From: Oscillospiraceae bacterium | Lineage (GTDB): Bacteria > Bacillota > Clostridia > Oscillospirales > Oscillospiraceae | Assembly (NCBI GenBank): GCA_031261635.1 | Contig: JAISJH010000068.1 | Location: 221-64,220 of the forward strand | DNA length: 64,000 nucleotides | Direction of reading: 5' to 3' | Part shown: positions 3,032 to 55,781 of the stretch, one piece after another | How the letters are laid out: each line of letters starts with the position of its first letter | Position numbering within the stretch: position 1 is the first letter of the stretch | Position numbers and translations under genes: made by a program | The notes under the pieces: generated by a model | What the model was told of the DNA's origin: nothing | Seen by the model: the letters and a program-made list of their open reading frames with translations, nothing else | Databases searched by the model: none

Positions 3032-3509
3032 AAAAACTGTCGCGGTTTTCAAGGGTTTAGTGTTTTTGCTGATACTATACCTCTTGCAAACGGGAGTGTT
3101 TCCGCATTTGCGTATATACGGCGTTGCGCCTCTGCTGCTGCCCGCCGGGGTGATTGTGATTGCGCTGCTAAAAGTCGGGCAGTCGGGCGGCGTCTGGGGA
3201 ATAACCGCAGGAATACTCTGCGATATGAGCGTGGGCGATTCGCCGCTGATGTGTACGCTGTTTCTGGGAGCGGCGGGGCTTGCCGCGAGCTACCTGGCAC
3301 AGCATTTTCTGGCGAGGACGTTTTTAACGTTTATAACGGTCACGGCGCTCGCGCTGATACTGCTCGCGGCGGTGCAGGCGGCTCCGCTGATGATTTTCGC
3401 GAGGGTAAACATACGCGCAGTCCTCCCGGTAGCCGCCGCGCAGACGGTCTACAGCCTCGCGCTATCGGCGGCAGTATGGCCGCTTGGACAATTGATAATT
3501 GATAATTGA
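3012..3509 (+). CDS. mreD: rod shape-determining protein MreD-like membrane protein
   Basis: About 165 aa, 4-5 TM, with a GGVWGITAGILCDMSVG motif resembling the MreD G..G.L.D core. It lies upstream of PBP2. ATG at 3012 (GTG 2997 is an alternative). The last codons are read out of an AT-rich heptad repeat. Confidence 0.55.
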   Translation: MLSITAKKTVAVFKGLVFLLILYLLQTGVFPHLRIYGVAPLLLPAGVIVIALLKVGQSGGVWGITAGILCDMSVGDSPLMCTLFLGAAGLAASYLAQHFLARTFLTFITVTALALILLAAVQAAPLMIFARVNIRAVLPVAAAQTVYSLALSAAVWPLGQLIIDN

Positions 3510-6390: not shown

Positions 6391-6393
6391 TTA

Positions 6394-16689: not shown

Positions 16690-16992
16690 AACTCAGCCCC
16701 TGCCCCCTTCCGGAGAAGGGGGTGCCTCCGCAGAGGCGGGGGTTGTTCTCTAAGAATTGCGGTAACCCTTAAAGACCAACCCCCGCCGCCTGCGGGCGGC
16801 ACCCCCTTCGTGCGCGAAGGGGGCAGGGAGCGGGAATAGTGCGCGATAAACCGCGTCCCTACGTCCCGCCGCCTGCGGGCGGCACCCCCTTCGTGCGCGA
16901 AGGGGGCAGGGAGCGGGAATAGGGCGCGATAAATCGCGCCCCTACGTCCCGCCCCCGTCTCTGATATTTGATATTTGATAACTGTTAACTGA
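16690..16992. repeat. composite intergenic mosaic repeat containing an 83-bp tandem duplication
   Basis: CCCGCCGCCTGCGGGCGGCACCCCCTTCGTGCGCGAAGGGGGCAGGGAGCGGGAATAG.GCGCGATAAA.CGCG.CCCTACGT occurs twice (16782-16864 and 16865-16947). The terminal module CGTCTCTGATATTTGATATTTGATAACTGT is at 16956-16985. Confidence 0.9.
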
Positions 16993-31706: not shown

Positions 31707-31756
31707 CGTGTTACCTCTCGTGAATAGGGGGAATGTCAAATGTTTACCGCACCATT

Positions 31757-32235
31757 TTGTAGGGGCAACGCACCTTGCCTCGCCCGGATTGCGTAACCCA
31801 CGTCCAAACCCCTATCCCCTCTGTGGAGGGGTGCCGCCCGCAGGCGGCGGGGTGGTTTCCCGGCGCCGTGCGCCGTCTTTGCGAGCGCCGGGAAACTAAA
31901 CATACAATCAAGGTATAGGCGCGAAGCAATCCAGTGCCGGGAGCGTAACATACGTATCTGCGGACTGCGGCACTGGATTGCTTCGCGCCTATACATACTA
32001 CGTATCGCAAGTGCGGCGGCGCTCGCAAAGACGGCGCACGGCGCCGGGACGGAGGGCTGGACGAAGGCCTGGACGGCGCACGGCGCCGGGACGGGGGAAA
32101 CCACCCCGCCGCCTGCGGGCGGCACCCCTCCACAGAGGGGATAGGGGTTTGGACGGCGCACGGCGCCGGGACGCGATTTCAGTTAACAATTAACAGTGAA
32201 CAGTGAATAATTACGGGGGTTTGGACGGGGAAACG
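31757..32235. repeat. long near-palindromic mosaic repeat inside the gat operon
   Basis: Left arm CCCCTATCCCCTCTGTGGAGGGGTGCCGCCCGCAGGCGGCGGGGTGGTTTCCCGGCGCCGTGCGCCGTCTTTGCGAGCGCC. It is mirrored by GGCGCTCGCAAAGACGGCGCACGGCGCCGGGA...GAAACCACCCCGCCGCCTGCGGGCGGCACCCCTCCACAGAGGGGATAGGGG. The centre is at CAATCCAGTGCCGG...CCGCACTGGATTG, about 31965. Confidence 0.9.
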
Positions 32236-37800: not shown

Positions 37801-37998
37801 CTTTAGGGCTGAACTCGCCTTTATCGTTGCCGCTGAAAATGTCTAAAGCGGTGACGACCATAGCGGCGTCATAATAGCCCGGGTCGATTTTATCGACGTC
37901 AGTCCACTTCGCGAGGGTCTCGCCGACGAGCTTTGCGTCAGCCCCGGTGCCGATTGTATAGTCGGCCTGTTTGTCGACTGCCGCGGCACTAGTTCCCC
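34832..37998 (-). CDS. silent S-layer (SLH-domain) protein cassette 1: no promoter, SD, start codon or signal peptide
   Basis: The frame is open from the 42-bp core (GTSAAAVDKQADYTIGTG...) to the stop at 34832, with an in-frame TAA at 38014-38012 just upstream of the core. The N-terminal about 230 aa aligns with the four paralogs (TFTRGAAATLLAKAYNTP; GDGWAYAMGFMSGT..FSP; LLVKMLGY; DIIRYAAEARLF..ITYEQAAQILVNA), giving three SLH-like repeats. Confidence 0.8.
37957..37998 (-). repeat. 42-bp recombination core site, copy 1 (silent)
   Basis: GGGGAACTAGTGCCGCGGCAGTCGACAAACAGGCCGACTATA (read on the minus strand), identical in all five copies. Confidence 0.85.
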
Positions 37999-38126
37999 AG
38001 GAATGTACCGTTTACAATATATGTCAGCAAAACTGGCCGCAAAGCTAGACGTTTAGGCGCGCAACGCTCGATTTGGGGCGTTTTGAAAACTCTCGAAACG
38101 CTTCAAAACAGACTCGTTTTGCCCTC
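37999..38126 (-). repeat. conserved non-coding leader of a silent cassette (copy 1)
   Basis: ...GTTTTGAAGCGTTTCGAGAGTTTTCAAAACGCCCCAAATCGAGCGTTGCGCGCCTAAACGTCTAGCTTTGCGGCCAGTTTTGCTGACATATATTGTAAACGGTACATTCCT. It is alignable with the leaders at 41468-41594, 46773-46877 and 50129-50255. Confidence 0.8.
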
Positions 38127-38170
38127 AAAAAGCCCTCCAAACGGTCGTTTTTTCGACCGTTCAGAGGGCT
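38127..38170 (-). terminator. intrinsic terminator upstream of silent cassette 1
   Basis: AGCCCTCTGAACGGTCG-loop-CGACCGTTTGGAGGGCT followed by TTTTT on the minus strand. Confidence 0.75.
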
Positions 38171-38189: not shown

Positions 38190-38378
38190 CTACAGCGAGG
38201 CCTTGACCCTTATGCTCTCATTGGCGATTTTAGGCTTGCGGCGGCGCGCCTCGCGGGCTAATCGCGCGTCGATTTTCGCCTTTTCCGCCTGGTACCACGG
38301 CTCGAGCGCTTCCCAATCCTTTCGAAAATTCGGGTTTTTCATATTTTCCTCGTGCCATTTTTCATAATTCAGCATCAT
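38190..38378 (-). CDS. HigA-like antitoxin remnant lacking the HTH domain
   Basis: N-terminus NPNFRKDWEALEPWYQAEKAKIDAR resembles the leader segment of XRE-type antitoxins that pair with Gp49/HigB toxins. Where the HTH should begin, the ORF continues as LAREARRRKPKIANESIRVKASL and stops. Start overlaps the toxin stop (ATGA). Confidence 0.5.
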   Translation of the reverse strand: MMLNYEKWHEENMKNPNFRKDWEALEPWYQAEKAKIDARLAREARRRKPKIANESIRVKASL

Positions 38379-38725
38379 TTTTTTGCTTTCCTTTCGAAGT
38401 AGATTTTTCTATAATTTTTTGCTTTTTCAATCTCTTTTTTGGGAGTTTTTTGTGTTTTTTTAATAAATCCGTTAGTAAAAACGATGCGTTTTCCAACATA
38501 AAAAAAGTATAGAACGCGGGTAATATCCGAGCCCTGTTTGGCTCTCAGCTCGAAAATTCCGTCGCCGAGCGGGCTCGAATGGGGCTCGCGAAGCGCGGGG
38601 CCGTTTTCGTGAAGCAGCTTCACCACGCGGTCGACCTTAGCCCACATTTTCCCGTCCAAAGCCCCGATAAACTCGCCGACCGGCGACTTCCCGTCCTCGG
38701 TTTCAAACAACTCAATCTCATACAT
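38375..38725 (-). CDS. Gp49/HigB-like RelE-superfamily toxin (copy 1)
   Basis: MYEIELFETEDGKSPVGEFI...GDGIFELRAKQGSDITRVLYFFYVGKRIVFTNGFIKKTQKTPKKEIEKA matches the phage Gp49-like (DUF891) addiction-module killer pattern. Confidence 0.8.
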   Translation of the reverse strand: MYEIELFETEDGKSPVGEFIGALDGKMWAKVDRVVKLLHENGPALREPHSSPLGDGIFELRAKQGSDITRVLYFFYVGKRIVFTNGFIKKTQKTPKKEIEKAKNYRKIYFERKAKK

Positions 38726-38744: not shown

Positions 38745-38793
38745 AGTATACCACAACCCCACAAAAAAGTCAACCGCCCCCGTGGGGGCGGTT
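38745..38793 (-). promoter_or_regulatory. cassette-end module: GC hairpin overlapping the -35 of a sigma-A promoter (drives toxin pair 1)
   Basis: AACCGCCCCCACGGGGGCGGTT (38793-38772), TTGACT (38773-38768), 17-nt spacer, TGgTATACT extended -10 (38750-38745). Confidence 0.7.
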
Positions 38794-38819: not shown

Positions 38820-41467
38820 TCAGGACATCTGTAACCCTATTGTATAGAACAGTTCGGGGCGCGATTTATCGTAGTCTGTACCCGTGAAGTGATACGTGTA
38901 CGAACCGTCCTGGCTCGAAGCATTATATCCGACATCTGTTAACACAAAGATATTTATTTGGTCAGCAGTCGGCGCGGCACTTACGGCTTCAAAGGTAGCC
39001 AAAGTCGGTACTATAGCCGCGCCAACTTGTGTCTTTCCTTCGTATGCTAATAGGGCACCTACAGACGCTGTCGTTTGCGATGCGGATTTTTCTACTATCT
39101 TTGTAATCGGTAAATAAGTTGTTGCGTCTGAGCCAATTGTCAAAGTATAGAATGTTCCGTCCGAGTCGGTTGAAATATCCGTAACAACGCCGAAGCCGGA
39201 AACGTGCGGCTTATCAGCCCATATGTCATAGTTTGGTTTGTCAGCGTCAGTAGAAGCCAACCCTACTCCGTTGTGTACTAAAAACGCTCTGCTTGCAACG
39301 GGATACAGCGACGGGACATATAGAATGTCAACTGTTCCGTCAGTTGCGTAAGCAATGTTCTGGTATCCGGTCGCGGCTCTTGTCGCAAGGTCATACCCAA
39401 ATTCGGGAGACGCGGACGCTGCCGGGTTCAACGCAACTTGTTTTACCGTCGTGGTTGAGGTAATACCTAAGGCCGTTCCGGGCGCCGTTTCATACTGCGC
39501 GTTTGTCCAGTTAGGAAGTGCGGGCCAAATTCCCGGGGTAGCCGTAGACGAACCTGCTGTCGGTGTGTTATCTTGTGTCGCAAGCTGTTTCGCAGAACCG
39601 AGCGAATTGCCGCCTAGTGCGAACAAGGCATATGTCCCGTCAGTCTGAACAACATATTCGTAGAATACGCCGTGTGTTGCAACTGCGGTTTCAAGTTCTT
39701 TAAGGTTCAAGCTGTTTGTTTTTCCGTTACCGTTGATTACAGAATTCTTTGCTGTAAGTCTGATGTTTTTGACAGAACCATCTTCGAGTATAACATATAG
39801 TGTTCCGTCCTCTGCCTGTTTCGCCGCAAGCGATATTCCTTGTGCGCCGGTGGCGACGCTTTTAATCGGAACATACAGGTAGGTGGCAGAATAGGCAGTC
39901 CACGTGGCGACTTTTGCGCCCTCAATGAAGTGCAGCGCACCGTGTTCGCCAATGATTGTGTTTACCTTTCCGTCAATGAAGTTCGCCTGATTTACTACCG
40001 CCAAGTCGGTCGCACCATAGGCGTCCAACGTTAATCCTGCTTTTATCGCGGTTTTTGCCGCGCCGTCGCTTGTATATGATACAGTACCCGCAGAATTACT
40101 ATAGCTCTTGACTGTAATTGAAACAGGTGTAACGGCTTTTGCCGCTAAATATTTTCCTGTCCAAGCATATGAATCCGTCGGAGCGGCAGTAGCCTGAACG
40201 CCAAGAACAAAGGTTTTTGCCGTACTCGGAAGGGTAGCAATTATACCGTCAGTAGTGTTTTTCACTTCATCGGCTGCCAAAAGTTTTACAGTAGCGGCAT
40301 AGGGTCCGGCAGACGGACCGTCATTCAGAATGATTGATTCAAAAATGCCGATTGTCTTGTAAAGTTCGCGCGAATCTTCGGTATATTTTACTAGTTCAAG
40401 GAAAGTTCCGTTCGGGACAGCAACGTTCGTCGCCCCCATAAAGTACAGATAAGTACTTGTAACAGTGGGTTCGGTCGAGCCATTCAGTATTAGTTCTTGT
40501 CCTGCGTTGTTCGACGCGTATGTCGAGTTATAAATTGTATCATCACCCGCCCACGCAAGGCCCGGGGCGGTCAATCCCGCAGTAAAGGAATCGACGACAG
40601 CGTAGTGAGGGACAAAACCCGTGATGTACTTTGTGCTTGTGCTAGAAATTCCACCGCTCCATTTTACTAACGCGGTTCCGGGATAGCCGAACGCGTCACG
40701 CGCGGCCGCGTTTATTCCGTCAGAATATAATGTCTCAAAACCGTAATAATATACCGGTTGCGGTCCGTTGTAACCTGATGTCGTGTCCTGTGTCTTTTGC
40801 AAAAGCGCGGTACGGTTTTGCATATATACATCGTACTGCTGTCCGGTGTATTGGTTGCGGTCGTTCGTTACTCGTTTCGCTTTAAGGGCGTTAACGGTAA
40901 TCTGCGCCGCTTGCTCAAACGTAACTTTTGCGGTCGGGTCAGTCACAGTGATACCTGAAAACAATTTCGATTCCGAAGCGAAGCGGATAATGTCGATTTT
41001 GTAGTTTTCAGTCAAGGTGTATCCGAGCATTTTAACGAGCATACCGGTGTACTCGAGAACGGTAATGTCGCGCGCCGGGGAAAATTCTGTCCCGGCTTTG
41101 TTGGTTCCGCTCATAAAGCCTAGAGCATACGCCCAGCCCGCTCCGTTAGCAGCGTAGCTTCCGTCAGTATCGGTGAACGGTGAAACATAGATAGGGCCAA
41201 GTTCAGCCCAAACTTTAGGCGTGTTGTAGGACTTGGCGAGCAAAGTAGCCGCCGCGCCGCGTGTGAAAGTTTTCTTAGCGTTGAAAGCTCCGTCAGTACC
41301 CTCAAAGATACCGAGAGCCGTCACGACCATAGCGGCGTCGTAGTAACCCGCGTCGATGTCGGCCGCGTCAGTCCACTTGGCGAGGGTCTCGCCGACGAGC
41401 TTCGCGTCAGCCCCGGTGCCTATTGTATAGTCGGCCTGTTTGTCGACTGCCGCGGCACTAGTTCCCC
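38820..41467 (-). CDS. silent S-layer (SLH-domain) protein cassette 2: no promoter, SD, start codon or signal peptide
   Basis: The frame is open from the 42-bp core to the stop at 38820. The N-terminal SLH-like region is conserved (TFTRGAAATLLAKSYNTP; AGWAYALGFMSGT..FSP; MLVKMLGY; DIIRFASESKLF..VTFEQAAQITVNAL). The C-terminal two-thirds are divergent. Confidence 0.8.
41426..41467 (-). repeat. 42-bp recombination core site, copy 2 (silent)
   Basis: Identical 42-mer, in frame with cassette 2. Confidence 0.85.
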
Positions 41468-41594
41468 AGGAATGTACCGTTTACAATATATGTCAGCGAA
41501 ATCGACCGCAAAGCTAGATTATTAGGCTCGCAACCCTCGATTTGGGGCGTTTCAAGTTGTCTCGAAACGCTTTAAAACAGCCTTGTTTTGCCCT
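41468..41594 (-). repeat. conserved non-coding leader of a silent cassette (copy 2)
   Basis: Alignable with 37999-38126. It ends ...GCTGACATATATTGTAAACGGTACATTCCT next to the core. Confidence 0.8.
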
Positions 41595-41640
41595 AAAAAA
41601 GCCCTCCAAACGGCCGTTTTTTTCGACCGGTTAGAGGGCT
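41595..41640 (-). terminator. intrinsic terminator upstream of silent cassette 2
   Basis: AGCCCTCTAACCGGTCG-loop-CGGCCGTTTGGAGGGCT followed by TTTTTT on the minus strand. Confidence 0.75.
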
Positions 41641-41659: not shown

Positions 41660-41845
41660 CTACAGCGAGGCCTTGACCCTTATGCTCTCGGCGGAGATTT
41701 TGGGCTTGCGGCGGCTCGCCTCGCGGGCTAATCGCGCGTCGATTTGGGCTTGTATTTGCTTGCCCCAGTCCTCGAGGGCGTCGTATTCTTTGCGAAATTC
41801 CGGGTCTTTTAATTGTTCCGCTAAATAATCTGAAAATTTTCTCAT
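41660..41845 (-). CDS. HigA-like antitoxin remnant lacking the HTH domain (copy 2)
   Basis: MRKFSDYLAEQLKDPEFRKEYDALEDWGKQIQAQIDAR, then the same tail LAREASRRKPKISAESIRVKASL as copy 1. Confidence 0.5.
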   Translation of the reverse strand: MRKFSDYLAEQLKDPEFRKEYDALEDWGKQIQAQIDARLAREASRRKPKISAESIRVKASL

Positions 41846-42195
41846 AATAAATTCCTCCTGTTTTCCCGGTATTCATCTCTGTATTTTTTTGCTTTTTCAA
41901 TTTCATTGGGCGGTATTTCCTGTGTTTTTTTGATAAAACCGTGCGTCAAAACCACAGTTTTTCCCTCGATAAAAAAGTACAGAACACGTGTAATATTCGA
42001 GCCGGACTGCGCTCGCAACTCCAAAATGCCGTCCCTCAAATACGCCGAATGCGGACGCCCGAGTTTTGGCCCGTTGTCGGCCAATTTTTCAATAACTTTA
42101 ACCATTTTTGTTCTCATTTTTTTGTCCAAAGAATTAAGAAATTCTTCGGCCGGCTTGTCGCCGTTGCCCTTTTCAAACAAAATAATCTCATACAT
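41842..42195 (-). CDS. Gp49/HigB-like RelE-superfamily toxin (copy 2)
   Basis: MYEIILFEKGNGDKPAEEFL...RDGILELRAQSGSNITRVLYFFIEGKTVVLTHGFIKKTQEIPPNEIEKA. Confidence 0.8.
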   Translation of the reverse strand: MYEIILFEKGNGDKPAEEFLNSLDKKMRTKMVKVIEKLADNGPKLGRPHSAYLRDGILELRAQSGSNITRVLYFFIEGKTVVLTHGFIKKTQEIPPNEIEKAKKYRDEYRENRRNLL

Positions 42196-42214: not shown

Positions 42215-42263
42215 AGTATACCACACCCCCGCAAAAAAGTCAACCGCCCCCGTAGGGGCGGTT
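42215..42263 (-). promoter_or_regulatory. cassette-end module: GC hairpin overlapping the -35 of a sigma-A promoter (drives toxin pair 2)
   Basis: AACCGCCCCTACGGGGGCGGTT (42263-42242), TTGACT (42243-42238), 17-nt spacer, TATACT (42220-42215). Confidence 0.7.
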
Positions 42264-45200: not shown

Positions 45201-45345
45201 GAGCAAGCTGCTCGCCGACAGCCTTCCCGTCCACCGTATAGTCGGCCTGTTTGTCGACTGCCGCGGCACTAGTTCCCCCAAAGGCGAACATTCCGACTAT
45301 CATCGTGAGCGCGAGGACTAACGATAATATGCGTTTTGTGGTCAT
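42292..45345 (-). CDS. expressed S-layer protein (three N-terminal SLH-like repeats plus a large variable domain)
   Basis: This is the only paralog with an ATG (45345), an SD (GGAGGA) and a promoter. Signal peptide MTTKRILSLVLALTMIVGMFAFGGTSAAA; 1017 aa, rich in T/A/G/V/Y as is typical of S-layer proteins. SLH-like motifs: TFTRGAAATLLAKAYNTP; GDGWAYALGYMSGT..FSP; MLVKMLGY; DIIRFASEANLF..ITYEQASLIMVNAL. Confidence 0.85.
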   Translation of the reverse strand: MTTKRILSLVLALTMIVGMFAFGGTSAAAVDKQADYTVDGKAVGEQLAQFTDIAELDAGYYDATMVLAALGIRTGNTNKELTPKTTFTRGAAATLLAKAYNTPATWEQLGDIYVSPFVDHVSDYGNGDGWAYALGYMSGTGSAGGQIYFSPKREISVIEFTGMLVKMLGYTLTENYKTDIIRFASEANLFRGITISDPNAKITYEQASLIMVNALQADRVASDRNSYTGQNYDTYSVNRTPLLYDGTIAPTSTIIDARKYNYTLATLTRTATAAEAHDAYGYPGTALILKAANNTYSAGYIAGFVPHFTSVGDFTAGLTTLSTAGSSGHAAAVKTTGGGIVLNGAVTTLSAIKNSVKVGAVDHPERLSGGFLLGTYVDVVSYTDASGELNYKDVAFKETASAAALTAATEYKLSPLLAAKNAKATVDVGSFALYIKDEANSGATSKDFVYFYAEGAKEQVVTVTSNIRTLGRITYVVDGVTATGLDNNFQGSALGTESTAVEGRFKLVIGSHGVLYNAGTSVDTTWTALGAKYLFIPALAGVESNLFASDRSDTLKDDQFDVIYDDGSIGVITLSDKEALNGAGAKNYLDPDDVKATTFYEYTVVTGSTVNLFDVAAPAGGAAAVAVFSAAPYVTVHDSRANLALADPGAKPNWGGYLLADMPGAYTAQTVYTNAATTFTQVIYPYDTVATASWKAPVKNTGVGYNKIIYPDNISWLAVLALNAVTPNTAVKEFIVHFETSGGADWASGVVSPDRVIKIENAMAAGKGANAHYLVNTSDGVGIKINKAINKTVAVTGDDAVPSAIIAANSNVPVKGDYGYLIGSETAGYDLYYINNATYKTSPVALADSNIGDEYLILDGKDYSNTTVYLEVLDNAGNGFYPAIYVSKALAAADQTMFSSTDLTGGVYSSTPKGSYDGDKAYQPEGTLDETDFLAWWAENNPWHDWYGTDYAGADGTAIGGGILLSDVTFTIAYGPVPAGSLDLMMGTNTAESYDIVGANFLILTWAGLDLDEYVAP
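45237..45278 (-). repeat. 42-bp recombination core site, copy 3 (expression site)
   Basis: The identical 42-mer encodes G-T-S-A-A-A-V-D-K-Q-A-D-Y, the end of the signal peptide and the first mature residues. Upstream of it the sequence is unique (signal-peptide exon), not the silent leader. Confidence 0.85.
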
Positions 45346-45479: not shown

Positions 45480-46643
45480 CTACGCCACAAAAACCTCCTT
45501 CATATATTCATAATACAGCATAGCCGCCTCGCGCTTCTGCTCCGGCAAGACGTCAATGTAGATTGAGTGGACGTCGCCGCCGCCGCGGTGTCCCATAAGC
45601 TCGCGGCAGACGCTCTCCTTGACCCCGGCGGCCTCCATATAGGTGCCGTAGCTATGGCGGAACAGGTGAAAATGAACAGCGCGGGGGTTAATTCCCCGCG
45701 CTGTCCAAAACCTGCTGATTGCGTTGCGTAAGCCGCTGTAGCTGTAAATCTCGCCGAATTTATTCGGGAACACGAGTTTTTGGCCGCCGCTGTCGGCTTT
45801 TCGTTTCCGCAGCATTTTCAGCAGGGATTTGTGAACGTAGATGTCGCGGGCCGAACCCTCGGTTTTGGGGCCTCCGACGCGCCCCTTGTATTCGTCGGAG
45901 CTTTGCGCGGGGTCGGGAACGCGCTTGTAGGCTTTGACGACGCGAATGTAACCCAGCTCGAAGTTAATATTGCCGTATTCAAGCGCGATAACCTCCCCGA
46001 TACGCATACCGGTATGCAAAAGCGTGAGAATTATAGGCGCGTAGGTGCTGTTATCGCGAACCTCGCGAAGCGCGGTCTTAAGCGTCTCAAAGGGAATAGC
46101 CGCGGCGCGGTCGCGCTCGATTTGGGATTTTTTACCATTCAAAAAGTTTTTTAGAAAGCGCATAGGACTGCGCCGGATAATGTTTTCCTCGAGAGCTATG
46201 TCGAAAATGCGGTTTAATAGAAATTTTATTTTTAATAATATTGAAATACTTGGAGTTTGTCCGTTTTTTAATTGCACATTTTTGAAAAATTCTTTAATAT
46301 CGTCGGGGTTTATGTCCTCGATAAATACGCCTTCAAAACCGGGAAATCTGTAAATATAAAGTAAATAATATTCGTAACCCGCGAGGGTCGTGGCCTCCTG
46401 TTCGTCCTTGATAATTGATTCGTAGGCGTATTTCGCGTAGTCTGTAAGAGGGTGCTTCCCGGCGGCCGTATCGCCCGCCGCAAAGCGTTCTAGCTCCCTC
46501 GCATGAATGTATTTTCCGCAAACGACGGTGAGTTCCTTGTGTTCGGTAAGCTCGGAAATAATAGAGGTTTTAAGTCCCAAAATTTTCCCGGATTCCCGAA
46601 ACGTGTACAAAAGTTTTTCCTGCGGCATTCTTTCCTGTGGCAT
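45480..46643 (-). CDS. tyrosine-type site-specific recombinase (phage integrase family), candidate S-layer cassette invertase
   Basis: Catalytic signature LLHTGMRIGEVIAL (Arg), HLFRHSYGTYM (His-x-x-Arg), and LMGHRGGGDVHSIYIDV (His...Tyr). ATG at 46643 follows AAGGAG. The track ORF start at 46712 lies in the promoter. Confidence 0.85.
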   Translation of the reverse strand: MPQERMPQEKLLYTFRESGKILGLKTSIISELTEHKELTVVCGKYIHARELERFAAGDTAAGKHPLTDYAKYAYESIIKDEQEATTLAGYEYYLLYIYRFPGFEGVFIEDINPDDIKEFFKNVQLKNGQTPSISILLKIKFLLNRIFDIALEENIIRRSPMRFLKNFLNGKKSQIERDRAAAIPFETLKTALREVRDNSTYAPIILTLLHTGMRIGEVIALEYGNINFELGYIRVVKAYKRVPDPAQSSDEYKGRVGGPKTEGSARDIYVHKSLLKMLRKRKADSGGQKLVFPNKFGEIYSYSGLRNAISRFWTARGINPRAVHFHLFRHSYGTYMEAAGVKESVCRELMGHRGGGDVHSIYIDVLPEQKREAAMLYYEYMKEVFVA

Positions 46644-46682
46644 AGTGTAGAAATCTCCTTTAATAATAAAAATGTAAGAGCT

Positions 46683-46712
46683 ATTATAACGGAAAATGTA
46701 GGCAATTGTCAA
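46683..46712 (-). promoter_or_regulatory. sigma-A promoter of the recombinase gene
   Basis: TTGACA (46712-46707), 18-nt spacer, TATAAT (46688-46683). It shares the 14-nt TTTGCCTCTTGACA with the S-layer promoter. Confidence 0.7.
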
Positions 46713-46772: not shown

Positions 46773-46877
46773 GAAGCGTTTCGAGAGTTTTCAAAACGCC
46801 CCAAATCGACGGTTGCGAGCCTAAACGTCTAGCTTTGCGGCCAATTTCGCTGACATATATTGTAAACGGTACATTCG
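46773..46877 (+). repeat. conserved non-coding leader of a silent cassette (copy 4, no terminator)
   Basis: GAAGCGTTTCGAGAGTTTTCAAAACGCCCCAAATCGACGGTTGCGAGCCTAAACGTCTAGCTTTGCGGCCAATTTCGCTGACATATATTGTAAACGGTACATTC. It is 1 nt shorter before the core than the other leaders. Confidence 0.8.
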
Positions 46878-46919
46878 GGGGAACTAGTGCCGCGGCAGTC
46901 GACAAACAGGCCGACTATA
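46878..46919 (+). repeat. 42-bp recombination core site, copy 4 (silent, inverted relative to the expression site)
   Basis: GGGGAACTAGTGCCGCGGCAGTCGACAAACAGGCCGACTATA on the plus strand. Confidence 0.85.
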
Positions 46920-49798
46920 CAATAGGCACCGGGGCTGACGCAAAGCTCGTCGGCGAGACCCTCGCGCAATTTGCCGACATCGCGGACCTCGACGCGGGGT
47001 ATTACGACGCTACGATGGTTCTCGCGGCTCTTGGTATCCGCGCGGGTAATCCTAACAAGGAACTCACCCCTAAAACCACCTTTACGCGCGGCGCGGCGGC
47101 TACACTTTTAGCCAAAGCGTACAATACGCCCGCCACTTGGGAACAGCTCGGCGAAATTTATGTCTCACCGTTTGTTGACCACGTTGGTGATTATGGAAAC
47201 GGCGACGCTTGGGCATATGCTCTCGGCTTTATGAGCGGCACCGGAAGCGCGGGCGGGCAGCTCTATTTCAGCCCCAAACGCGATATTTCCGTTATCGAGT
47301 TCACAGGTATGCTGGTTAAAATGCTCGGTTACACGCTTACCGAGAGCTACAAGACCGACATAATCCGCTTTGCGAGTGAAGCGAATCTGTTCAATGGTAT
47401 CACGATATCCGACCCCAGCGCGAAAATCACCTATGAACAGGCTTCGCTGATTATGGTTAACGCGCTGAAAGCGCCCCGCGTAGCGAGTAACCGCAACGAG
47501 TATACGGGTCAGAAGTATGACACGTATTCGCCTAACCGCTTACCGTTACTTAGCGAAAAAAAGACCGGTGATAACTTGACTTATGGCGCGCTTACAGACA
47601 TCAAGTATAATTATTCCTTTGGTGGGAACGACGCGTTCGGCTATCCCGGAACTTCGCTGGTTGCAATTACAAAATCCAGTATTGCGAACAAAGACCAAAT
47701 CCTTGGTTTCGTCCCGCATTACACATTTGAAACTTCGTACACCCAAGGCTTGAACCGCCCGGTCGCGGGTCCGACTACGCTCCCCGGAACTGCGGCACTT
47801 GAGGCCGTTCAGCCAATAGAAGTGTTTGAGAACGGTGAGGCAGCGGAGTACGGTCTTGATTTCGCAAACGCGTCAACTTATGTTCCTGCGAATGGAACGT
47901 ATGCGGAAGTCGTTTCGTATACCGCAAATGACGGCACGACTAAATTCCGCACCGTATCCGTTTTGGAAACTCTGGTTGCTCAGGGCGCATATGACGCTGA
48001 AAAAGTATTTTCCGGTGCGACGTCAGTGGGCGGGCAAAAACTCTTAACATTTGCAGCTTACACACCCGGTTATGCTCTTGTTGCCTATACCGCGACGGCT
48101 ACAGCGGGTCCGGTTTTATCGGCACGCGCTGTCACCGCAGAAAAGAAAAACATCACTACAATAATCGGCTCAAAATTTACCGCAAAAGATGTTGATGGTA
48201 CAACTACTTCCACATACGTAAGTGCGAAGTTGGCTGACAAAACGGTTCCTATTGCTGCCGATGGCTTTACACCGTTTGTATCAGTTAGTGGTTTGAAAGA
48301 TACCACCGGTATATTTGAAGTGGTACTCGGTGAACACGGCGAGTTATTCTACGCGAATGACCCGGCTACAACGTGGTCGTGGGCAACGGCAAAATATCTG
48401 TTTGTTCCTGACCAGAGCAGTGCAATTGCCACCGCGGTTGCTACAAACGTAGCAAGTACGCAAACGGTACTCATTTTGGAGGACGGAACGGTTGTCAAAG
48501 GTGTTATTGCGGCGGCTAAAACAGCAACGAGCCAACATAATACACTAAACGTTGTTCCGGGTGTTTCAGCAAACCTGTTTAATACATTCTACGAGTATGA
48601 AATAGTAAACGGAGAATATGCTCTTTATGCGCTGACGGGGGCGATAGACACAACATACGCATATACTGTTACTGGGGCGACTGCGGGCGCCGTGTCCCCG
48701 GGGCTAAACCCCTCGCTTGGACTGGCGCAAAGCGGAACTGTCGCAGGTGTCCCTCTTACCGCCTTGACTAGCATTAAACAAATAGGCGTCAAAACCGGAA
48801 CGCCTCCGTCTGCTGGTGTCACAAATGTCAAAACACAAACGCTGACAGGCTATCATAAAGTAAAAACATCAGCCACAGGCGGGTCGTACATTTTAGAAGT
48901 ATATACGCCGCTAGCACCCGGACAATATTCAACACGAGCTGTTTGGATTTCTGCCGACGCTATAGGACACGGCGATATTACAACCCCGGCGTTCAAAGCT
49001 ACAGGATATGCGCTTGGGTTGCCATATGGGAACTTTGCTTGGTATGCGGAGCCCATTTACACAGTGGGCGATACCACGTATGACATCTACATTTACAACA
49101 CCACCACATACGCATACGCGAAACTTTTCAATACATCAGATACTACTTTTGCCGGAAAAGTGAGTGGCCAAGATAACGGCATACTCGCATATAACGAAAC
49201 AGAAGTGCAAATTCTGGACGCTACTTATTTCGTAGCAAAAATCGGAACAATAACGGCAGATAACGTTAGCATATTTACTGACATAGGCGGACCTGTGACC
49301 TATGCGCGTACTACGGTTGATTCTCCCAAAATCGACCAAACTGGCGCACAGTTGTTCTTATCTGCTACTCCGTCGACTTTGACTACAATTAACGCAACCG
49401 CTTCTGACGCAATCGCAACTATCCAAGCTACCGCTACAGCCACTGCGGCGGTCATAGGCGGCTACGCGAAGGCCGCGGCATGTCCGGCGTTAGCAAGCGC
49501 TACAGCGTTCAAAACAAATACAAGTAATGTTTGGACTGCTGCGTCATTGAACAATCTTGCCGACCATCTAATCCTATGGGAACCCCTGTGGACGGCGATT
49601 GAATCTAAGTTAAATTCTGACGCGACAAACGAAGCAAAAACCGCTGAACAAACCTATGCTGACGCAATAAAATTCTTGAACGCCGCTAGCGCGGAAGTCG
49701 CATTGAATACCAAGAACAGTACGGATATCAACGTAGCGCGTACTAAACTAGACGCATTTTTAACTGGTAAAATAGCTTGGCTTGACGGTATATCCTAA
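46878..49798 (+). CDS. silent S-layer (SLH-domain) protein cassette 4: no promoter, SD or signal peptide
   Basis: GTSAAAVDKQADYTIGTGADAKLVGETLAQF..., then the conserved SLH-like region and a divergent C-terminal part. The track ORF extends upstream to a TTG at 46706 through the leader and the recombinase promoter (basic junk sequence MSRGKCRKKSKGRRERG, no signal peptide). Confidence 0.8.
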
Positions 49799-49820: not shown

Positions 49821-49869
49821 AACCGCCCCCACGGGGGCGGTTGACTTTTTTGTAGAGGTGTGGTATACT
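49821..49869 (+). promoter_or_regulatory. cassette-end module: GC hairpin overlapping the -35 of a sigma-A promoter (drives the small ORF)
   Basis: AACCGCCCCCACGGGGGCGGTT 49821-49842, TTGACT 49841-49846, 17-nt spacer, TGgTATACT (TATACT 49864-49869). Confidence 0.7.
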
Positions 49870-49900: not shown

Positions 49901-50074
49901 ATGGCTAAAAACGCGGCGGAAATTTCAGCGAGGGCTTTGCGAGCAAACACGCTTCGCGAGATAAGAGATACATTGCTCATCATAAAGCCCGGCGAATTAG
50001 AAAAATTGCCGGAGGAAATCGACAAACTCGCCGAAGCACTCAAAAAAGAAGCCGACGAGCTTACGAAAATCTAG
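49901..50074 (+). CDS. small hypothetical helical protein (57 aa)
   Basis: ATG at 49901 follows TAGGAGGG. MAKNAAEISARALRANTLREIRDTLLIIKPGELEKLPEEIDKLAEALKKEADELTKI. It sits between a promoter and a terminator in the position the toxin pairs occupy on the other arm. It falls below the ORF-track length cutoff. Confidence 0.45.
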   Translation: MAKNAAEISARALRANTLREIRDTLLIIKPGELEKLPEEIDKLAEALKKEADELTKI

Positions 50075-50082
50075 CGTGAAAT

Positions 50083-50128
50083 AGCCCTCCAAACGGTCGA
50101 AAAAAACGGCCGTTTGGAGGGCTTTTTT
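50083..50128 (+). terminator. intrinsic terminator upstream of silent cassette 5
   Basis: AGCCCTCCAAACGG-loop-CCGTTTGGAGGGCT followed by TTTTT. Confidence 0.8.
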
Positions 50129-50255: not shown

Positions 50256-50297
50256 GGGGAACTAGTGCCGCGGCAGTCGACAAACAGGCCGACTATA
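50256..50297 (+). repeat. 42-bp recombination core site, copy 5 (silent, inverted relative to the expression site)
   Basis: Identical 42-mer on the plus strand, in frame with cassette 5. Confidence 0.85.
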
Positions 50298-53200
50298 CCG
50301 TAACCGGCGCGGCCAACTCCGGGCTTATCGGCGAGACGCTCGCTAAGTGGAAAGACGCTGACAAAATCAGCGCGGAGTATCTTGACGCCGCTATGGTTGT
50401 CACCGCTCTTGGTATCTTCAGCGGTACTGATACTGACAATGACGGTATCGGCGATACTTTCAACGCCGCGACAACATTCTCGCGCGGCTCCGCGGCTACT
50501 TTGCTTGCGAAAGCCTATACTACGCCCGCAACCTGGGAAAAGACACAGGGCGCGTATGTTTCGACCTTCACCGATACCGGCACGCAGGGTCAGTACCCCG
50601 CAACCGGCGCGGGCTGGGCGTATGCATACGGCTTTATGAGCGGCACGAACGCCGGCGGGACGCAGTTTAGCCCCGACCGTAAAATCACACAGCTTGAGTA
50701 TGCGGGAATGCTCGTGAAAATGCTCGGCTACCACCTCACCGATAATTACAAAACCGACATCGCGCGTTTCGCTAACGAAGTCGGACTGTTCTCGGGGATT
50801 GACAACATCAACCTCACAGAGCTGATTACCTACGAACAGGCGGCAAAAATCACCGTCAACGCGCTGCTCGCGCAACCGGTTTACAACGACCGCGACAAGT
50901 ACACAACATCTGTCGACGTGTACGAACCGCGCCCGAACTATGCTCCCTTACTTTCGAGTAACCCGACTTTAGGAATACAGGGTATCAAATACCGCGCCAC
51001 CTACTCACAAATCGACGACGTGGCAGATCCGTATCCGCTTAACGCGCGTGACGCCTTCGGTTATCCCGGAACCGCGCTTACATATACTAACGGATACATC
51101 GCCGGCTTTGTACCGCACTATACCGTAATCGGAAAAGGTACTAAGGGGCTGACCGCAAGTTATATCTATTCCGCAGGTCCTACGGGTTATTTCCGCCCGG
51201 ATGGTACGGCTTATGACTTCCAAGACCAATATTTCAATAATGGAACTAGTGGCACTTATCCGTGGAACACAACGACATATGCTGACGAGGCCGTACGCGG
51301 AACCTATGGCGAACTTGTAACGTACACAGATTATCAAGGTAAAACAAAATATCGCTTGGTTGAGGTGTATGAAACTACCGACAATATTACAAACGGAACA
51401 ACTACAACCCAATTGACTTATGATATATCAGTAGAACCAAAAGCTTCAAAAACGACTTTCCCGGCTAACAGCCTTGTCAGTCGTGTAACGAAAGGTGCTT
51501 CTGTCATTTCAGCTAAAGTTGTTACGCCTGTGGTCGCGTCCGTGCTTTCGTACACAACTGCGGACGGATATCAAAACACAGCGACCCTATCAATTGACGG
51601 TAAAACTGTGTCAGCAGTTGCGATTAGTACGATAAACATATCGGACGTACATTTCGTAAGTGACAAAATTACTGTTTATGTAGGTGACCACGGTGACATA
51701 CAATGGCAGAAAAACGTGAAGGATTCCACGTGGTCAGCTGCTACTGCCGATTATCTCTACGTCCCGGAGACTGCAATTGCTGCGGGAGGTTACTTGGGCG
51801 TAGCTCATACCGTAGATAATTCGTTTGATGTAGTTTTAGATAGCGGTAAGGTAGTAACTCAAATCAAAATCGCTAAAGCGGGAACGACAGTAAATGGAAA
51901 CGGTATAACCAACGTTGCAAACAACATTTACGACAAATTCTTTGAATACGTAATTCAATCGGATGGAAGTTATGCACTCTTTGTGCCGTATTTAAGCACA
52001 GCGTATGCCCCTAACTTGGCAATTGCCTCGGCAACTGCAAAATCTTATACTGTTGTTGACCCGGCATTCACGAATGCTAACCCGACGGCAAAAGTTGGCG
52101 CGGTTAACGTAAGTCAAGTAAAAAATAATAGTGGATTTGCCTTAAATAACGCAATATTAGGCTCAAACACGACAACAGAAATCAAATCAGTTTATATAAA
52201 CACAGACACGACGAGTGGCGCTTATAATCCTGCTAACCTAAGTGGACCAATAGGAACTTATACGACTGTAGGATACCAAAACTTAGTATTCCCCGTAGTA
52301 GTTGGCGCGTCAATACGTGTTCTTACGGCTATTGATAACCCATATGAGATGGCGGCGGCCGGAACAGCAAAAAAATTGTTCTCCGTTCATTTGGGAACGA
52401 CGGCATTGACAGCCACAGGATCAAACGTAGTTGGTTGGACATCTTCGCTTCTTCCTGCGAAATACGCGACTACAGTAGCGAAAGTAACAAACGCAAATGG
52501 AGTATACAGCATTTATTCAAATGCGTTTGGAAGTTCTATTGACTATCCGGCATATGATGTTCTCGTTGGTACTACAACAGCGAGCACCGTAGGTGGAGAA
52601 ACACCGGCTGTTGGACAGTACGCCGTGTTTAATGAAACGGATTACTGGCTTGCAACTAAGGAAATGTTTGACGTGTCTGTTATATCGGCAACAATAAACG
52701 CTACAACAGACCAAGCACTCTCACTCGGTTCACCTGCTTCGGGTTACTACAGAGCAAAAGATACTAACGCCATTTTGCCAGACAACTTCTATGTAACTGT
52801 CGCTGGATTTGAAAAGCTTAGTGGTAACGCTATATATACTAACGGCAACGGACTGAAAAATTATATTGACAATTTGGGTAAAACCGCAGATGCTGCTGTT
52901 AGTGCTGCGTTCGAACAGGCCTTTTATGTTACCTTTATGCCGGAAGGCCCCGCAAAGGTAGCAGCTTCTGCTGCTGCGTCCAATGCCATAGCGAGCGCGA
53001 GCGCCGGACAGGTTTCTGCAAGAGCAGCAGCAATTACTGAAGCAAAAAGACTTGTTCCGACAGTTGCCGCGAAACCCGCTCTGTATGCGGAGATTGTCGA
53101 CACTACTGCAGGAAAAACAGACGCGACCCAAAAAACCGCTATTGAAGCATTAGTCAAAGATGTGTTTGGGGTTACTACTATCAACGGTGCCTTAGACGAT

Positions 53201-54097: not shown

Positions 54098-54128
54098 TAG
54101 TAAAATATTGGGAACGCAATCTTTAGTT

Positions 54129-54585
54129 AACAGTTATCAAATATCAAATATCAGAGCCGGTGTAACAGTTAACAGTTAGCAAATATCAAATATTAGAGAC
54201 GGGGGGCTTGGACGGGGGGCGCGTCCGCGCTCGGCGCGGGAAACCACCCCGGCGCTACGCGCCACCCCTCCCAAGAGGGGAATTTTCCGCGCACGGCGCG
54301 GGGACGGAATACAACCCCTGCATACGGTTCCCGCGTGCGCGCCCCTATTCCCCTCTTGGGAGGGGTGCCGCCGCAGCGGCGGGGTGGTTTCCCCCGCAGG
54401 GCGCAACTCCCGTCCAAACCTTTCGTCTCTGATATTTGATATTTGCTATCTGTTAACTGAACTTTCGTCTCTGATATTTAATATTTAATAACTGTTAACT
54501 GAACTTTCGTCTCTGATATTTGATATTTAATAACTGTTAACTGAACTATCGTCTCTGATATTTGATATTTGCTAACTGTTAACTG
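54129..54585. repeat. composite mosaic repeat ending in a 4 x 42-bp tandem array of the terminal module
   Basis: Terminal modules at 54129-54158 and 54164-54200, and paired CCCCTCTTGGGAGGGG / GAAACCACCCCGGCG palindromes. CGTCTCTGATATTTGATATTTGCTAACTGTTAACTGAACT.T starts at 54424, 54466, 54508 and 54550. The last unit supplies the hemW stop codon. Confidence 0.9.
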
Positions 54586-55781
54586 ATTAAAGCGTAGTAG
54601 TCGTCCTCTCGCCAGGGGGTTCCTACTTGGGATTTACGTTCCGCCTGGGCGTCGAGGAGTTCGCCGATTAGCCTGTTGGAGAGGAGGAAGCCTTTGGGGG
54701 TCAGGAGGTAGGCGTCGCCGCGTTTTCGCGCGAAGCCTAGTTTTTCGTAGGTCACGAGCGTTTTTTCGAGGGTGTCGAAGCCTCCGCGGTAGATTTGCTC
54801 GTAGCCCTGCCGCGTAATGCCGCGCGTTGTGCGAAGCCCGAGCATAATGTACTCGGCGGCCTTGCTGTAGGCGTTCAGCGTTTCGCTGTCCTCGTCGTTG
54901 ACGACGTTAGTCCCGCCCTCGACCGCCGCGATGTAAGCGTCGGGCGAGCGCAGGTAGCTGTAGCGCGAGTTACCGAGAAACGAAGCCGCCGAAGCTCCGA
55001 AGCCGGCGTACTCCTCCAGAAGCCAGTATTTGAGGTTGTGCCGCGACTCGAAGCCCTTTCGCGCGAAGTTTGAGATTTCGTATTGAGCGAAGCCCGCGCC
55101 GCCGAGCGTATCGACCGCGTAGAGGTACATATCCGCCTGCATATCGTCGTCGGGGATATCGGGAGCGCGGCGTACCCGCCAGAGCGGCGTATTGCGCTCG
55201 ATTTTCAGCCCGTAGGCCGATATATGCTGCGGAGCGGAGCGCAGAACGCCGCTTAGTGTCTGCGCCCAGTCCTCACGCGTCTGCCCCGGCAGGCCGTAGA
55301 TTATGTCAACGCTGACGTTTTCAAAACCCGCGAGCTTCGCGTCAAGCACAGCGTCAAGCGCAAGCTCGGCGTTATGCAAACGCCCAAGGTTCGAGAGCTG
55401 CGCGTTATTGAGCGTCTGCACCCCGATTGAGATACGGTTGAAGCCGTCCCTGCGAAGAAGCTTCAGCTCGTCCCGCCGTATGCTCTCGGGGTTTGCCTCG
55501 AACGTAATCTCCGGGGTTTTGGAAATTTTATAGTCCCTGTCGATAGCCGATAGGAGCCTCGACAGCCGCTTCGCCCCGTAGTGGGTAGGCGTCCCGCCGC
55601 CGAAGTAAATTGTATCCACTTCATACCCCTCAAGGCGCGGCGCGAACTCGCGCAAATGCTTCAAAAGCGCACGCTGGTAGGCGTCCATAAGCCCGTCCTT
55701 ATCGGGAAATGAACAGAAATCGCAGTAAACACACTTCGATTTGCAAAACGGCAGATGGACGTAAATCCCGATGTTTCTCAT
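54579..55781 (-). CDS. hemW: radical SAM heme chaperone HemW (coproporphyrinogen III oxidase-like)
   Basis: YVHLPFCKSKCVYCDF is the CxxxCxxC cluster motif, with a HemN-like C-terminal domain; 400 aa. Confidence 0.9.
   Translation of the reverse strand: MRNIGIYVHLPFCKSKCVYCDFCSFPDKDGLMDAYQRALLKHLREFAPRLEGYEVDTIYFGGGTPTHYGAKRLSRLLSAIDRDYKISKTPEITFEANPESIRRDELKLLRRDGFNRISIGVQTLNNAQLSNLGRLHNAELALDAVLDAKLAGFENVSVDIIYGLPGQTREDWAQTLSGVLRSAPQHISAYGLKIERNTPLWRVRRAPDIPDDDMQADMYLYAVDTLGGAGFAQYEISNFARKGFESRHNLKYWLLEEYAGFGASAASFLGNSRYSYLRSPDAYIAAVEGGTNVVNDEDSETLNAYSKAAEYIMLGLRTTRGITRQGYEQIYRGGFDTLEKTLVTYEKLGFARKRGDAYLLTPKGFLLSNRLIGELLDAQAERKSQVGTPWREDDYYALIS

Follow-up and report, generated by a model that had tools for sequence, protein, structure and literature searches.

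How does a locus that stores silent gene copies between recombination sites keep them? Rearrangement systems of this kind risk deleting their own archive and, to our knowledge, chromosomal integrons are the only case in which experiments have shown how the archive is maintained. The question is raised by a stretch of 64,000 nt (the whole of which is called here the window) from an Oscillospiraceae bacterium (GCA_031261635.1, contig JAISJH010000068.1, positions 221-64,220), in which two paralogous pairs of small genes, each encoding a HigB/Gp49 toxin and a very short antitoxin, lie among the cassettes of a surface-protein shufflon. The explanation developed below, to which an even chance is given, is that these pairs are working toxin-antitoxin (TA) operons with a minimal antitoxin and guard the cassettes of the shufflon.

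Two intact toxins of the HigB/Gp49 family

The genes of each pair are encoded by the minus strand in the order toxin then antitoxin, and the toxin stop and the antitoxin start overlap by 4 nt as ATGA in both pairs. Toxin 1 (38375..38725, 116 amino acids, aa) belongs to the HigB/Gp49 (Tad) family of mRNA interferases (Pfam PF05973, E 7.7e-25) and toxin 2 (41842..42195, 117 aa) to the same HigB/Gp49 family (E 4.1e-26). Their scores, 87.2 and 91.3 bits respectively, are well above the curated cutoff of PF05973 (23.9 bits) and extend over positions 1-88 and 1-87 of the 90 positions of the profile. The search with hidden Markov models that had been suggested by a reading of the sequence without databases (hereafter the sequence-only reading) thus bears out its description of full-length HigB/Gp49 toxins. 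The two toxins share 56% identity; exact-product look-ups gave no record for either of them.

The closest solved relative is HigB of Streptococcus pneumoniae (phmmer, toxin 2 to 6AF3_A, E 5.9e-9). The AlphaFold2 (AF2) model of toxin 1 (predicted local distance difference test, pLDDT, 86; predicted template modelling score, pTM, 0.81) comprises beta1, alpha1, alpha2, four strands and a C-terminal helix. Its superposition on S. pneumoniae HigB (6AF4) gives a template modelling (TM) score of 0.83-0.86 and a root mean square deviation of 2.1-2.2 Å, and that on Mycobacterium tuberculosis HigB1 a TM score of 0.74-0.77 (0.74 for 7NBU, the structure of this toxin on the ribosome with mRNA). Residues R68, R73, F90 and K92, found by mutation to matter in S. 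pneumoniae HigB (PMC7984235), align to R61, R70, F87 and K89, without variation between the two paralogs; E59 is likewise conserved in the toxins. The ratio of nonsynonymous to synonymous substitution rates (dN/dS), at saturated dS, is 0.14-0.26 when the two paralogs are compared with each other and with a third copy, which indicates that the toxins are old, intact and under purifying selection. The third copy is found in L002, one of three related contigs (L001, L002 and L003), all from JGI sample 3300042601. Both toxins are almost certainly intact members of the HigB/Gp49 family and, according to their sequence and the model, are predicted to be RelE-fold, ribosome-dependent mRNA endonucleases.

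Short antitoxins devoid of a helix-turn-helix

Antitoxin 1 (A1; 38190..38378, minus strand, 62 aa) comprises a HigA-like toxin-binding N-terminus and a basic tail, without a helix-turn-helix (HTH); antitoxin 2 (A2; 41660..41845, minus strand, 61 aa) is likewise short and HTH-less. They are 59% identical to each other, and A2 is identical to the hypothetical protein LBM98_07290. Their first ~45 residues are ~54% identical to 96-aa XRE HigA antitoxins (for A2 and the N-terminal 46 aa of the 96-aa HigA P0010, 54% identity and E ~1e-5 database-wide). This likeness ends at IDARLA, precisely where the HTH starts, as had been noticed from the sequence. Pfam and NCBIfam searches of both antitoxins gave no family and no HTH family. 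The antitoxin open reading frame (ORF) stops ~20 residues past the junction and a terminator lies within 20 nt. According to the alignment, the C-terminal strand by which HigA dimerises is also absent from the 61-62-aa proteins. A frameshift origin of the tail was rejected since tblastn with full-length HigA revealed an HTH-like segment in no frame of either interval.

In the 6AF4 complex, HigA residues 10-34 (beta1, alpha1 and alpha2) make every contact with HigB, the HTH corresponds to alpha3-alpha4 (47-66) and the C-terminal strand dimerises HigA (PMC7984235). Everything that binds the toxin is thus retained in the short proteins, and the parts for DNA binding and dimerisation are gone; without these two parts, repression of their own operon is impossible. 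The AF2 model of A2 shows helices 4-11 and 15-45 at pLDDT ~90, followed by a tail at pLDDT ~50; the basic tail of the short antitoxin is probably disordered. That the short antitoxin is functional is considered to be rather likely. The C-terminal ends of the short antitoxins are small and hydrophobic (ASL, RAF, PSL; SFA, AYA and ALA in Selenomonas-type relatives); as a speculation, these ends might be protease tags.

Divergence of the two pairs and homogenised tail

Sliding identity between the two units is 92-95% in the promoter and 40-75% in the toxin and the N-terminal part of the antitoxin. At ~38285 (the IDAR junction), it steps up to 85-100% and remains so through the tail, the terminator, the 'silent' flank and the recombination site. 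Between A1 and A2, the proportion of synonymous differences (pS) is 0.52 in the N-terminal part and 0.10 in the tail (38190-38285 versus 41660-41755), and the proportion of nonsynonymous differences (pN) is 0.40 and 0.07, respectively; outside the tail, changes have reached saturation in the operon. As the identity step coincides exactly with the point of HTH loss, the tail belongs to a block homogenised with the recombination site. The tails of the L002 and L003 antitoxins are nearly identical to each other and unlike those of the window, and their N-terminal parts are of the same two types as in the window. Judged from these comparisons, concerted evolution links the tail to the site-proximal block, and differences are maintained in the toxin and the toxin-binding part. 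Within the toxins, the alpha1-alpha2 interface that binds HigA is 44% identical between paralogs versus 68% for the catalytic core. This is suggestive of two insulated toxin-antitoxin specificities, with the reservation that helices also tend to diverge faster.

Remnants or a distinct subtype

The sequence-only reading described the partners as remnants and proposed as an alternative that they are a distinct short antitoxin. A length of 60-62 aa is kept in five diverged copies carried by four contigs (A1 and A2 of the window, and one copy each in L001, L002 and L003). In L002, a Gp49 gene and a 61-aa partner are flanked by a cassette on either side; in L003, the end of a Gp49 gene and a 61-aa partner precede a cassette; and L001 has a 60-aa partner without toxin. 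Between loci, dN/dS of the antitoxins is 0.19-0.39 for most pairs at saturated dS (up to 0.66 for A1 versus the orphan L001 copy); it is ~0.3-0.4 for the tail alone.

Relatives of toxin 2 from GTDB genomes (48-62% identical) were used as a control for partner length: a 90-105-aa XRE partner is found at ~76 of the 80 loci, none of which is associated with a related shufflon. In two Selenomonas genomes (L050 and L051; one cultured isolate), the partner is a 62-aa HTH-less protein, the N-terminus of which (KMKDPDFKREYDALEDW) is closely like that of the window antitoxins; this locus is outside any shufflon. Another HTH-less partner, the 59-aa P0091, lies behind a Gp49 gene in five contigs (four shown), which stem from four samples; these loci, too, are outside any shufflon. 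A search of 1.84 billion representatives with a profile of the short antitoxins gave 481 matches. Since many short matches are visibly frameshifted or truncated HigA genes, raw counts were not used, and only those lineages that had been checked in their genomic context were taken into account.

The absence of the HTH and dimerisation parts and the dN/dS of 0.93 between A1 and A2, taken alone, are what would be expected if the partners were non-functional truncations and the loci decaying or transcriptionally inert relics. This is very improbable: the value of 0.93 stems from the homogenised tail, whose pS of 0.10 lowers dS, and between loci the ratio is 0.19-0.39; length and frame are conserved in the five copies; independent HTH-less lineages exist; and no catalytic residue has been lost from the toxins, which would not be expected to persist intact without a working antitoxin. 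From the conserved length, the dN/dS between loci and the independent lineages, a minimal HTH-less antitoxin of the HigA type, distinct and recurrent as a subtype, is favoured over a remnant, and the second of the two earlier proposals is retained in place of the first. A full-text search of the literature found no description of a naturally HTH-less HigA.

Organization of the shufflon

Five large paralogous genes encoding SLH-domain surface proteins (C1-C5) are found in the 34.8-53.4 kb part of the window. C1 (34832-37861), C2 (38820..41330) and C3 (42292..45345) are on the minus strand; C4 (46706-49798) and C5 (50393-53401) are on the plus strand. Only in C3 are a start codon and a signal peptide present, together with a strong promoter (45418-45389, minus strand). 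C1 and C5 are terminal and non-expressed, C2 is silent and shares an excisable unit with pair 1, C3 shares an excisable unit with pair 2, and C4 belongs to the excisable unit of the plus arm.

Each cassette has a 43-nt recombination site, which encodes GTSAAAVDKQADYT directly after the signal peptide. Site 1 (37956-37998, within the 5′ coding region of C1), site 2 (41425-41467) and site 3 (45236-45278, at the expression junction) are on the minus strand; site 4 (46878-46920) and site 5 (50256-50298) are on the plus strand. Comparison of the repeats of the window showed that all five sites are 100% identical, sites 1-3 being direct and sites 4-5 inverted relative to them. The direct sites are spaced by 3469 nt (1-2) and 3811 nt (2-3). 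Recombination between them would thus excise circles of 3.47 kb and 3.81 kb, each carrying one cassette body and one pair, in agreement with the circles of 3.5-3.8 kb predicted earlier. A 'silent' flank of ~109 nt is common to the upstream side of the four non-expressed sites (for site 1, 37999..38104, minus strand, 94% complementary to 46773-46881); the signal peptide and the promoter are found instead upstream of site 3. A tyrosine recombinase (45480..46712, minus strand; Pfam Phage_integrase, E 3.5e-18) is encoded between C3 and C4 and lies between the oppositely oriented sites 3 and 4.

One expression site, 5′-truncated silent copies, a common site per copy and an adjacent tyrosine recombinase, i.e. 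the features of vpma/vsa-like shufflons, are therefore all found, and the locus is organized as a shufflon of S-layer (SLH) proteins with a single expression site. From the geometry of the sites, inversions alone would suffice to move any cassette to the expression site; for example, inversion at sites 3/4 followed by inversion at sites 2/4 would lead to the expression of C2. No variant junctions were found among the related contigs, which are short and end near sites. Scans of metagenome contigs with the exact 43-nt site and with a degenerate coding version gave zero matches and thus added no independent shufflon. Only two homologues of the recombinase were found at E below 1e-20, on L084 (3951 nt, 94% identical) and L085 (1780 nt, 57%), both from sample 3300042601 like the related shufflon contigs. 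L084 stops ~200 nt beyond the recombinase stop, where a recombination site is expected. The site sequence was matched on neither of these two contigs, the assembly of which may have been broken there by repeats or by mixed arrangements. No structured RNA was found in the window using Rfam.

Operon signals and the cargo slot

The promoters of pair 1 (38745..38773) and pair 2 (42215..42243), both on the minus strand, are TTGACT-17-TATACT with an extended -10 TG. They are embedded in the U-tract of the terminator of the preceding cassette, overlapping those of C2 (38772-38793) and C3 (42242-42263), respectively. The promoter of pair 1 is 92-95% identical to that of pair 2 and 94% identical to the plus-arm copy. 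Terminators follow antitoxin 1 (38126..38170, minus strand; 17-bp hairpin and U-run, -39.2 kcal/mol, z -7.3) and antitoxin 2 (41594..41640, minus strand; hairpin and U-run, -34.8 kcal/mol, z -5.4), the two hairpin stems being 16-17 bp. That each pair has its own promoter and terminator, as read from the sequence, is thus confirmed. Only two ORFs lie between promoter and terminator in both intervals. A third regulator gene, as in three-component systems, was considered and rejected, none being found in either interval.

A composite made of a G+C-rich terminator hairpin, the U-tract of which holds the -35 box of a near-consensus promoter, follows every cassette and precedes every small cargo gene. 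In the window, this terminator-promoter composite is found after C1 (34753-34801), C2 (38745-38794), C3 (42215-42264) and C4 (49820-49869), and in L001 at 2195-2250, 2640-2695, 2913-2965 and 3187-3235. It also drives adjoining housekeeping genes, i.e. gatCAB in the window (promoter after C1, 34781-34753) and, in L001, an FAD-binding oxidoreductase gene (Pfam FAD_binding_2) that is probably nadB-like.

In the plus arm, the same promoter/terminator slot as that of the pairs in the minus arm is filled by a different small ORF (49901..50074, plus strand, 57 aa; promoter 49841-49869, terminator 50083-50123), which agrees with the position given to it in the sequence-only reading. Homology between the two arms is lost immediately behind the -10 box and is regained 10 nt beyond the antitoxin stop. 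No family was found for this ORF in Pfam, NCBIfam, PHROGs or PADLOC. It belongs to a family of hydrophilic, probably helical proteins of 55-71 aa (consensus AEISAR...LR..R..L...ADELTKI) known solely downstream of these SLH cassettes, often in tandem. Besides the window copy, four copies are found in L003 (3411-4373), two in L001 (2725-3179) and one in L002 (4747-4962), each with its own hairpin-plus-TTGACT terminator-promoter composite. The window ORF is identical at 56 of its 57 positions to an L003 copy, the neighbouring antitoxins being ~50-60% identical.

A possible role in the retention of cassettes

Each pair would be a working type II TA operon of the Tad-Ata kind (HigB/Gp49) whose antitoxin is minimal, toxicity and neutralisation being predicted from the sequence. 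This antitoxin would consist of the N-terminal strand and two helices by which HigA clamps alpha1/alpha2 of HigB, followed by the basic tail. The operon would be transcribed from the near-consensus promoter inside the terminator of the upstream cassette and ended by its own strong terminator. Each operon is joined physically to the 3′ end of one internal cassette. As recombination happens at the sites, no series of inversions would separate a pair from its cassette; as several sites are always direct, the recombinase could also delete a unit as a non-replicating circle. A deletion of 3469 nt, with pair 1 and the C2 body, would follow from recombination at sites 1/2, and one of 3811 nt, with pair 2 and the C3 body, from recombination at sites 2/3. 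Such deletions by the recombinase are presumed here, productive switching needing inversions only; they could alternatively arise by homologous recombination between the conserved 5′ ends of the cassettes. On loss of a unit, its antitoxin, presumably labile, would disappear and its toxin would be kept, leading to arrest or death. Deletion variants would be purged and the silent repertoire kept, the pairs being presumed not to neutralise each other.

The distribution of the pairs is consistent with this role. An intact pair is found in four of the five site-bounded intervals: two of the three intervals of the window have one, as do the single intervals of L002 and L003, the sites of which were confirmed. 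None of the four terminal flanks (those of C1 and C5 in the window and a single flank each in L003 and L001) has an intact pair. C1 and C5, being terminal, are not excisable by recombination between direct sites. The terminal flank of L001 (2255-2520) carries a 25-codon toxin stub, the ends of which resemble the toxin start and C-terminus, as if the middle of the gene had been deleted, followed by the orphan 60-aa antitoxin.

Several points weigh against a guarding role. The one-sided Fisher test for four of five versus none of four gives ~0.04 for loci that are related, come from one sample (3300042601) and are perhaps not independent. The excisable unit of the plus arm (C4) has no toxin pair, which the hypothesis leaves unexplained. 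Cross-neutralisation between A1 and A2 might exist and would cancel the penalty for the loss of a single unit, the presence of pairs in two units could result from plain duplication of the whole 3.5-kb unit, and the recombinase may be biased towards inversion. The minimal antitoxin, moreover, is no shufflon-specific adaptation, since HTH-less pairs are also found outside shufflons. That the pairs contribute by guarding to the retention of cassettes is therefore put forward tentatively, as the most attractive of the readings but at somewhat less than even confidence; the proposal draws on the geometry, on the small and non-independent comparison above and, by analogy, on a direct precedent in integrons.

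The same data could also reflect selfish hitchhiking: one HigB-type operon would have landed behind a cassette, been copied with the unit and become hard to lose, with no selected benefit for the shufflon. The pairs lie within the 3.47-kb tandem repeat unit, the slot accepts unrelated cargo such as the small ORF 49901-50074, gut Firmicutes carry Gp49 pairs very commonly and in a variety of contexts, and several relatives of the toxins are flanked by short direct repeats or found in repeat-bounded arrays. We consider hitchhiking possible though rather doubtful, given that the two copies are ancient (dS above 1) and both intact under purifying selection, that both antitoxin types recur in other shufflons (L002 and L003) and that the sole copy in a non-excisable flank (L001) lacks the toxin. 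In practice, it differs from the guarding of cassettes only by whether the stabilising effect is selected.

Loss of the toxin in a terminal flank and the presence of one pair per unit also bear on a third possibility, as both would be left unexplained if the pairs were abortive-infection modules. Surface-layer variation is a plausible anti-phage trait, and the pairs might form a small defence island beside phage-receptor variation, S-layer switching evading adsorption and HigB stopping translation upon entry. The toxins match phrog_2523 (PHROG, E ~1e-25) and 'toxin' morons, and their Gp49 domain has a match in NsnC, a PADLOC candidate, over the C-terminal third of that protein (E ~1e-13). This match is partial, however, no complete known defence system was found by PADLOC and no other defence genes are found among the ORFs of the interval, so that an anti-phage role is improbable.

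In its strongest form, the guarding of cassettes would make the pairs selected, integral parts of the shufflon: one addiction module per internal unit, diverged interfaces making the loss of any unit lethal, and a bare-peptide antitoxin allowing constitutive, copy-independent expression. The archive would then be policed against its own recombinase, as in chromosomal integrons. This form is held to be unlikely.

Relations to known systems

The pairs resemble HigBA of S. pneumoniae (6AF3/6AF4; Gp49 PF05973, COG4679, Tad-Ata) in the toxin-first overlapping genes, the RelE-fold topology, the key residues and the type of antitoxin N-terminus (DPEFRKEYDALEPEF...IDAR). In contrast to S. pneumoniae HigA, the window antitoxin ends after alpha2, has neither XRE HTH nor dimerising strand, which makes autoregulation impossible, and carries a basic tail of 20-25 residues; the promoter of the pair also differs by its location within the terminator of the neighbouring gene. 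A stabilising function is cited for Tad-Ata of pAMI2, a system of the Gp49 family, and for its homologues on N15 and SXT (PMC2701414). Antitoxins without DNA-binding domain are known from three-component systems (PaaR-PaaA-ParE; omega-epsilon-zeta), where a separate repressor is found (PMC5086665). The short toxin-binding antitoxin without DNA-binding domain is a common feature, but here there is no third regulator gene and the toxin is HigB/Gp49, not ParE or zeta.

The closest functional analogues are the TA cassettes of the Vibrio cholerae integron, which carry promoters and kill the cell if cassettes are excised too often (Richard et al. 2024, PMC13108822). Both systems have pairs with their own promoter located among silent, recombinase-excisable units bounded by direct sites, and the role proposed here, killing upon excision, is also alike. 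Unlike in integrons, there is no integron integrase (the window recombinase scores 18 bits with the integron-integrase model, cutoff 265) and no attC, the sites being 43-nt repeats inside the surface-protein coding sequence; the productive reaction is inversion, not capture; and the pair is linked to a cassette and is not a cassette itself. The mosAT module of SXT (PMC2654960) is also an addiction module that retains a DNA segment able to leave by site-specific excision, but its proteins are unrelated and it protects a whole conjugative element, not individual cassettes.

Among shufflons, those of Mycoplasma agalactiae (vpma/Xer1) and Mycoplasma pulmonis (vsa) share with the window locus an expression site with promoter and signal peptide, 5′-truncated silent genes, a short conserved site per gene and an adjacent tyrosine recombinase. 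They differ by the host, here a Firmicute (Oscillospiraceae), and by the cargo, here SLH-domain S-layer-like proteins. We know of no TA pairs described inside vpma or vsa loci. A full-text search of the literature combining 'toxin-antitoxin' with 'shufflon' returned plasmid papers only and no TA pair inside a shufflon. Inversions and excisions are reported for Xer1 of M. agalactiae vpma, according to the citation of Czurda et al. 2010 in PMC5634654.

Repeats around relatives and elsewhere in the window

In Traorella massiliensis (L025; NZ_LT629968.1, 4600-13500), a HigB/HigA pair related to the window toxins is located in an array of at least 8 direct copies of a 73-231-nt repeat with a perfect hairpin (CCAACATGGCAAATTGCCATGTTG). 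Genes encoding a HipA-like protein, SSB, a ParB-like protein, a Phd/YoeB pair and a RelB/YoeB pair lie between these repeats; the array possibly represents the leading region of a conjugative element. At five other loci (L066, 1758-2674; L011; L012; L052; L072), the Gp49 pair is flanked by direct repeats of 70-180 nt with 84-98% identity, reaching 95% or more in L011, L012 and L066 only. This arrangement, found in genomes that are unrelated, suggests that the Gp49 pair moves as a repeat-bounded unit.

Within the window, a 42-nt A+T-rich unit is found at 54114-54595, just beyond the shufflon and a tetrapyrrole methylase gene, as four tandem copies (54420-54586) and inverted copies (54122-54226). 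Similar 14-nt TATCA-type repeats are found at 6392, 58826 and 60538. G+C-rich repeats lie between housekeeping genes at 16782-16953 and 31736-32200, one of them being an 83-nt unit in 2.1 copies with 96% identity. Related-looking sequence downstream of gatB leads to long spurious ORFs on both strands. These G+C-rich repeats may be REP-like (repetitive extragenic palindrome) elements.

Biological significance

The 60-aa HigA fragment found here in its natural state is, from its sequence, a predicted minimal neutralising element for a widespread toxin family. The short form would imply that autoregulation is dispensable in some lineages, which may be useful for understanding and engineering toxin control. 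If the pairs do guard the S-layer cassettes, the solution found in chromosomal integrons would have evolved also in the unrelated recombinase system of a gut Firmicute and, if this is true, the use of addiction modules as guardians of recombination archives could be a general rule.

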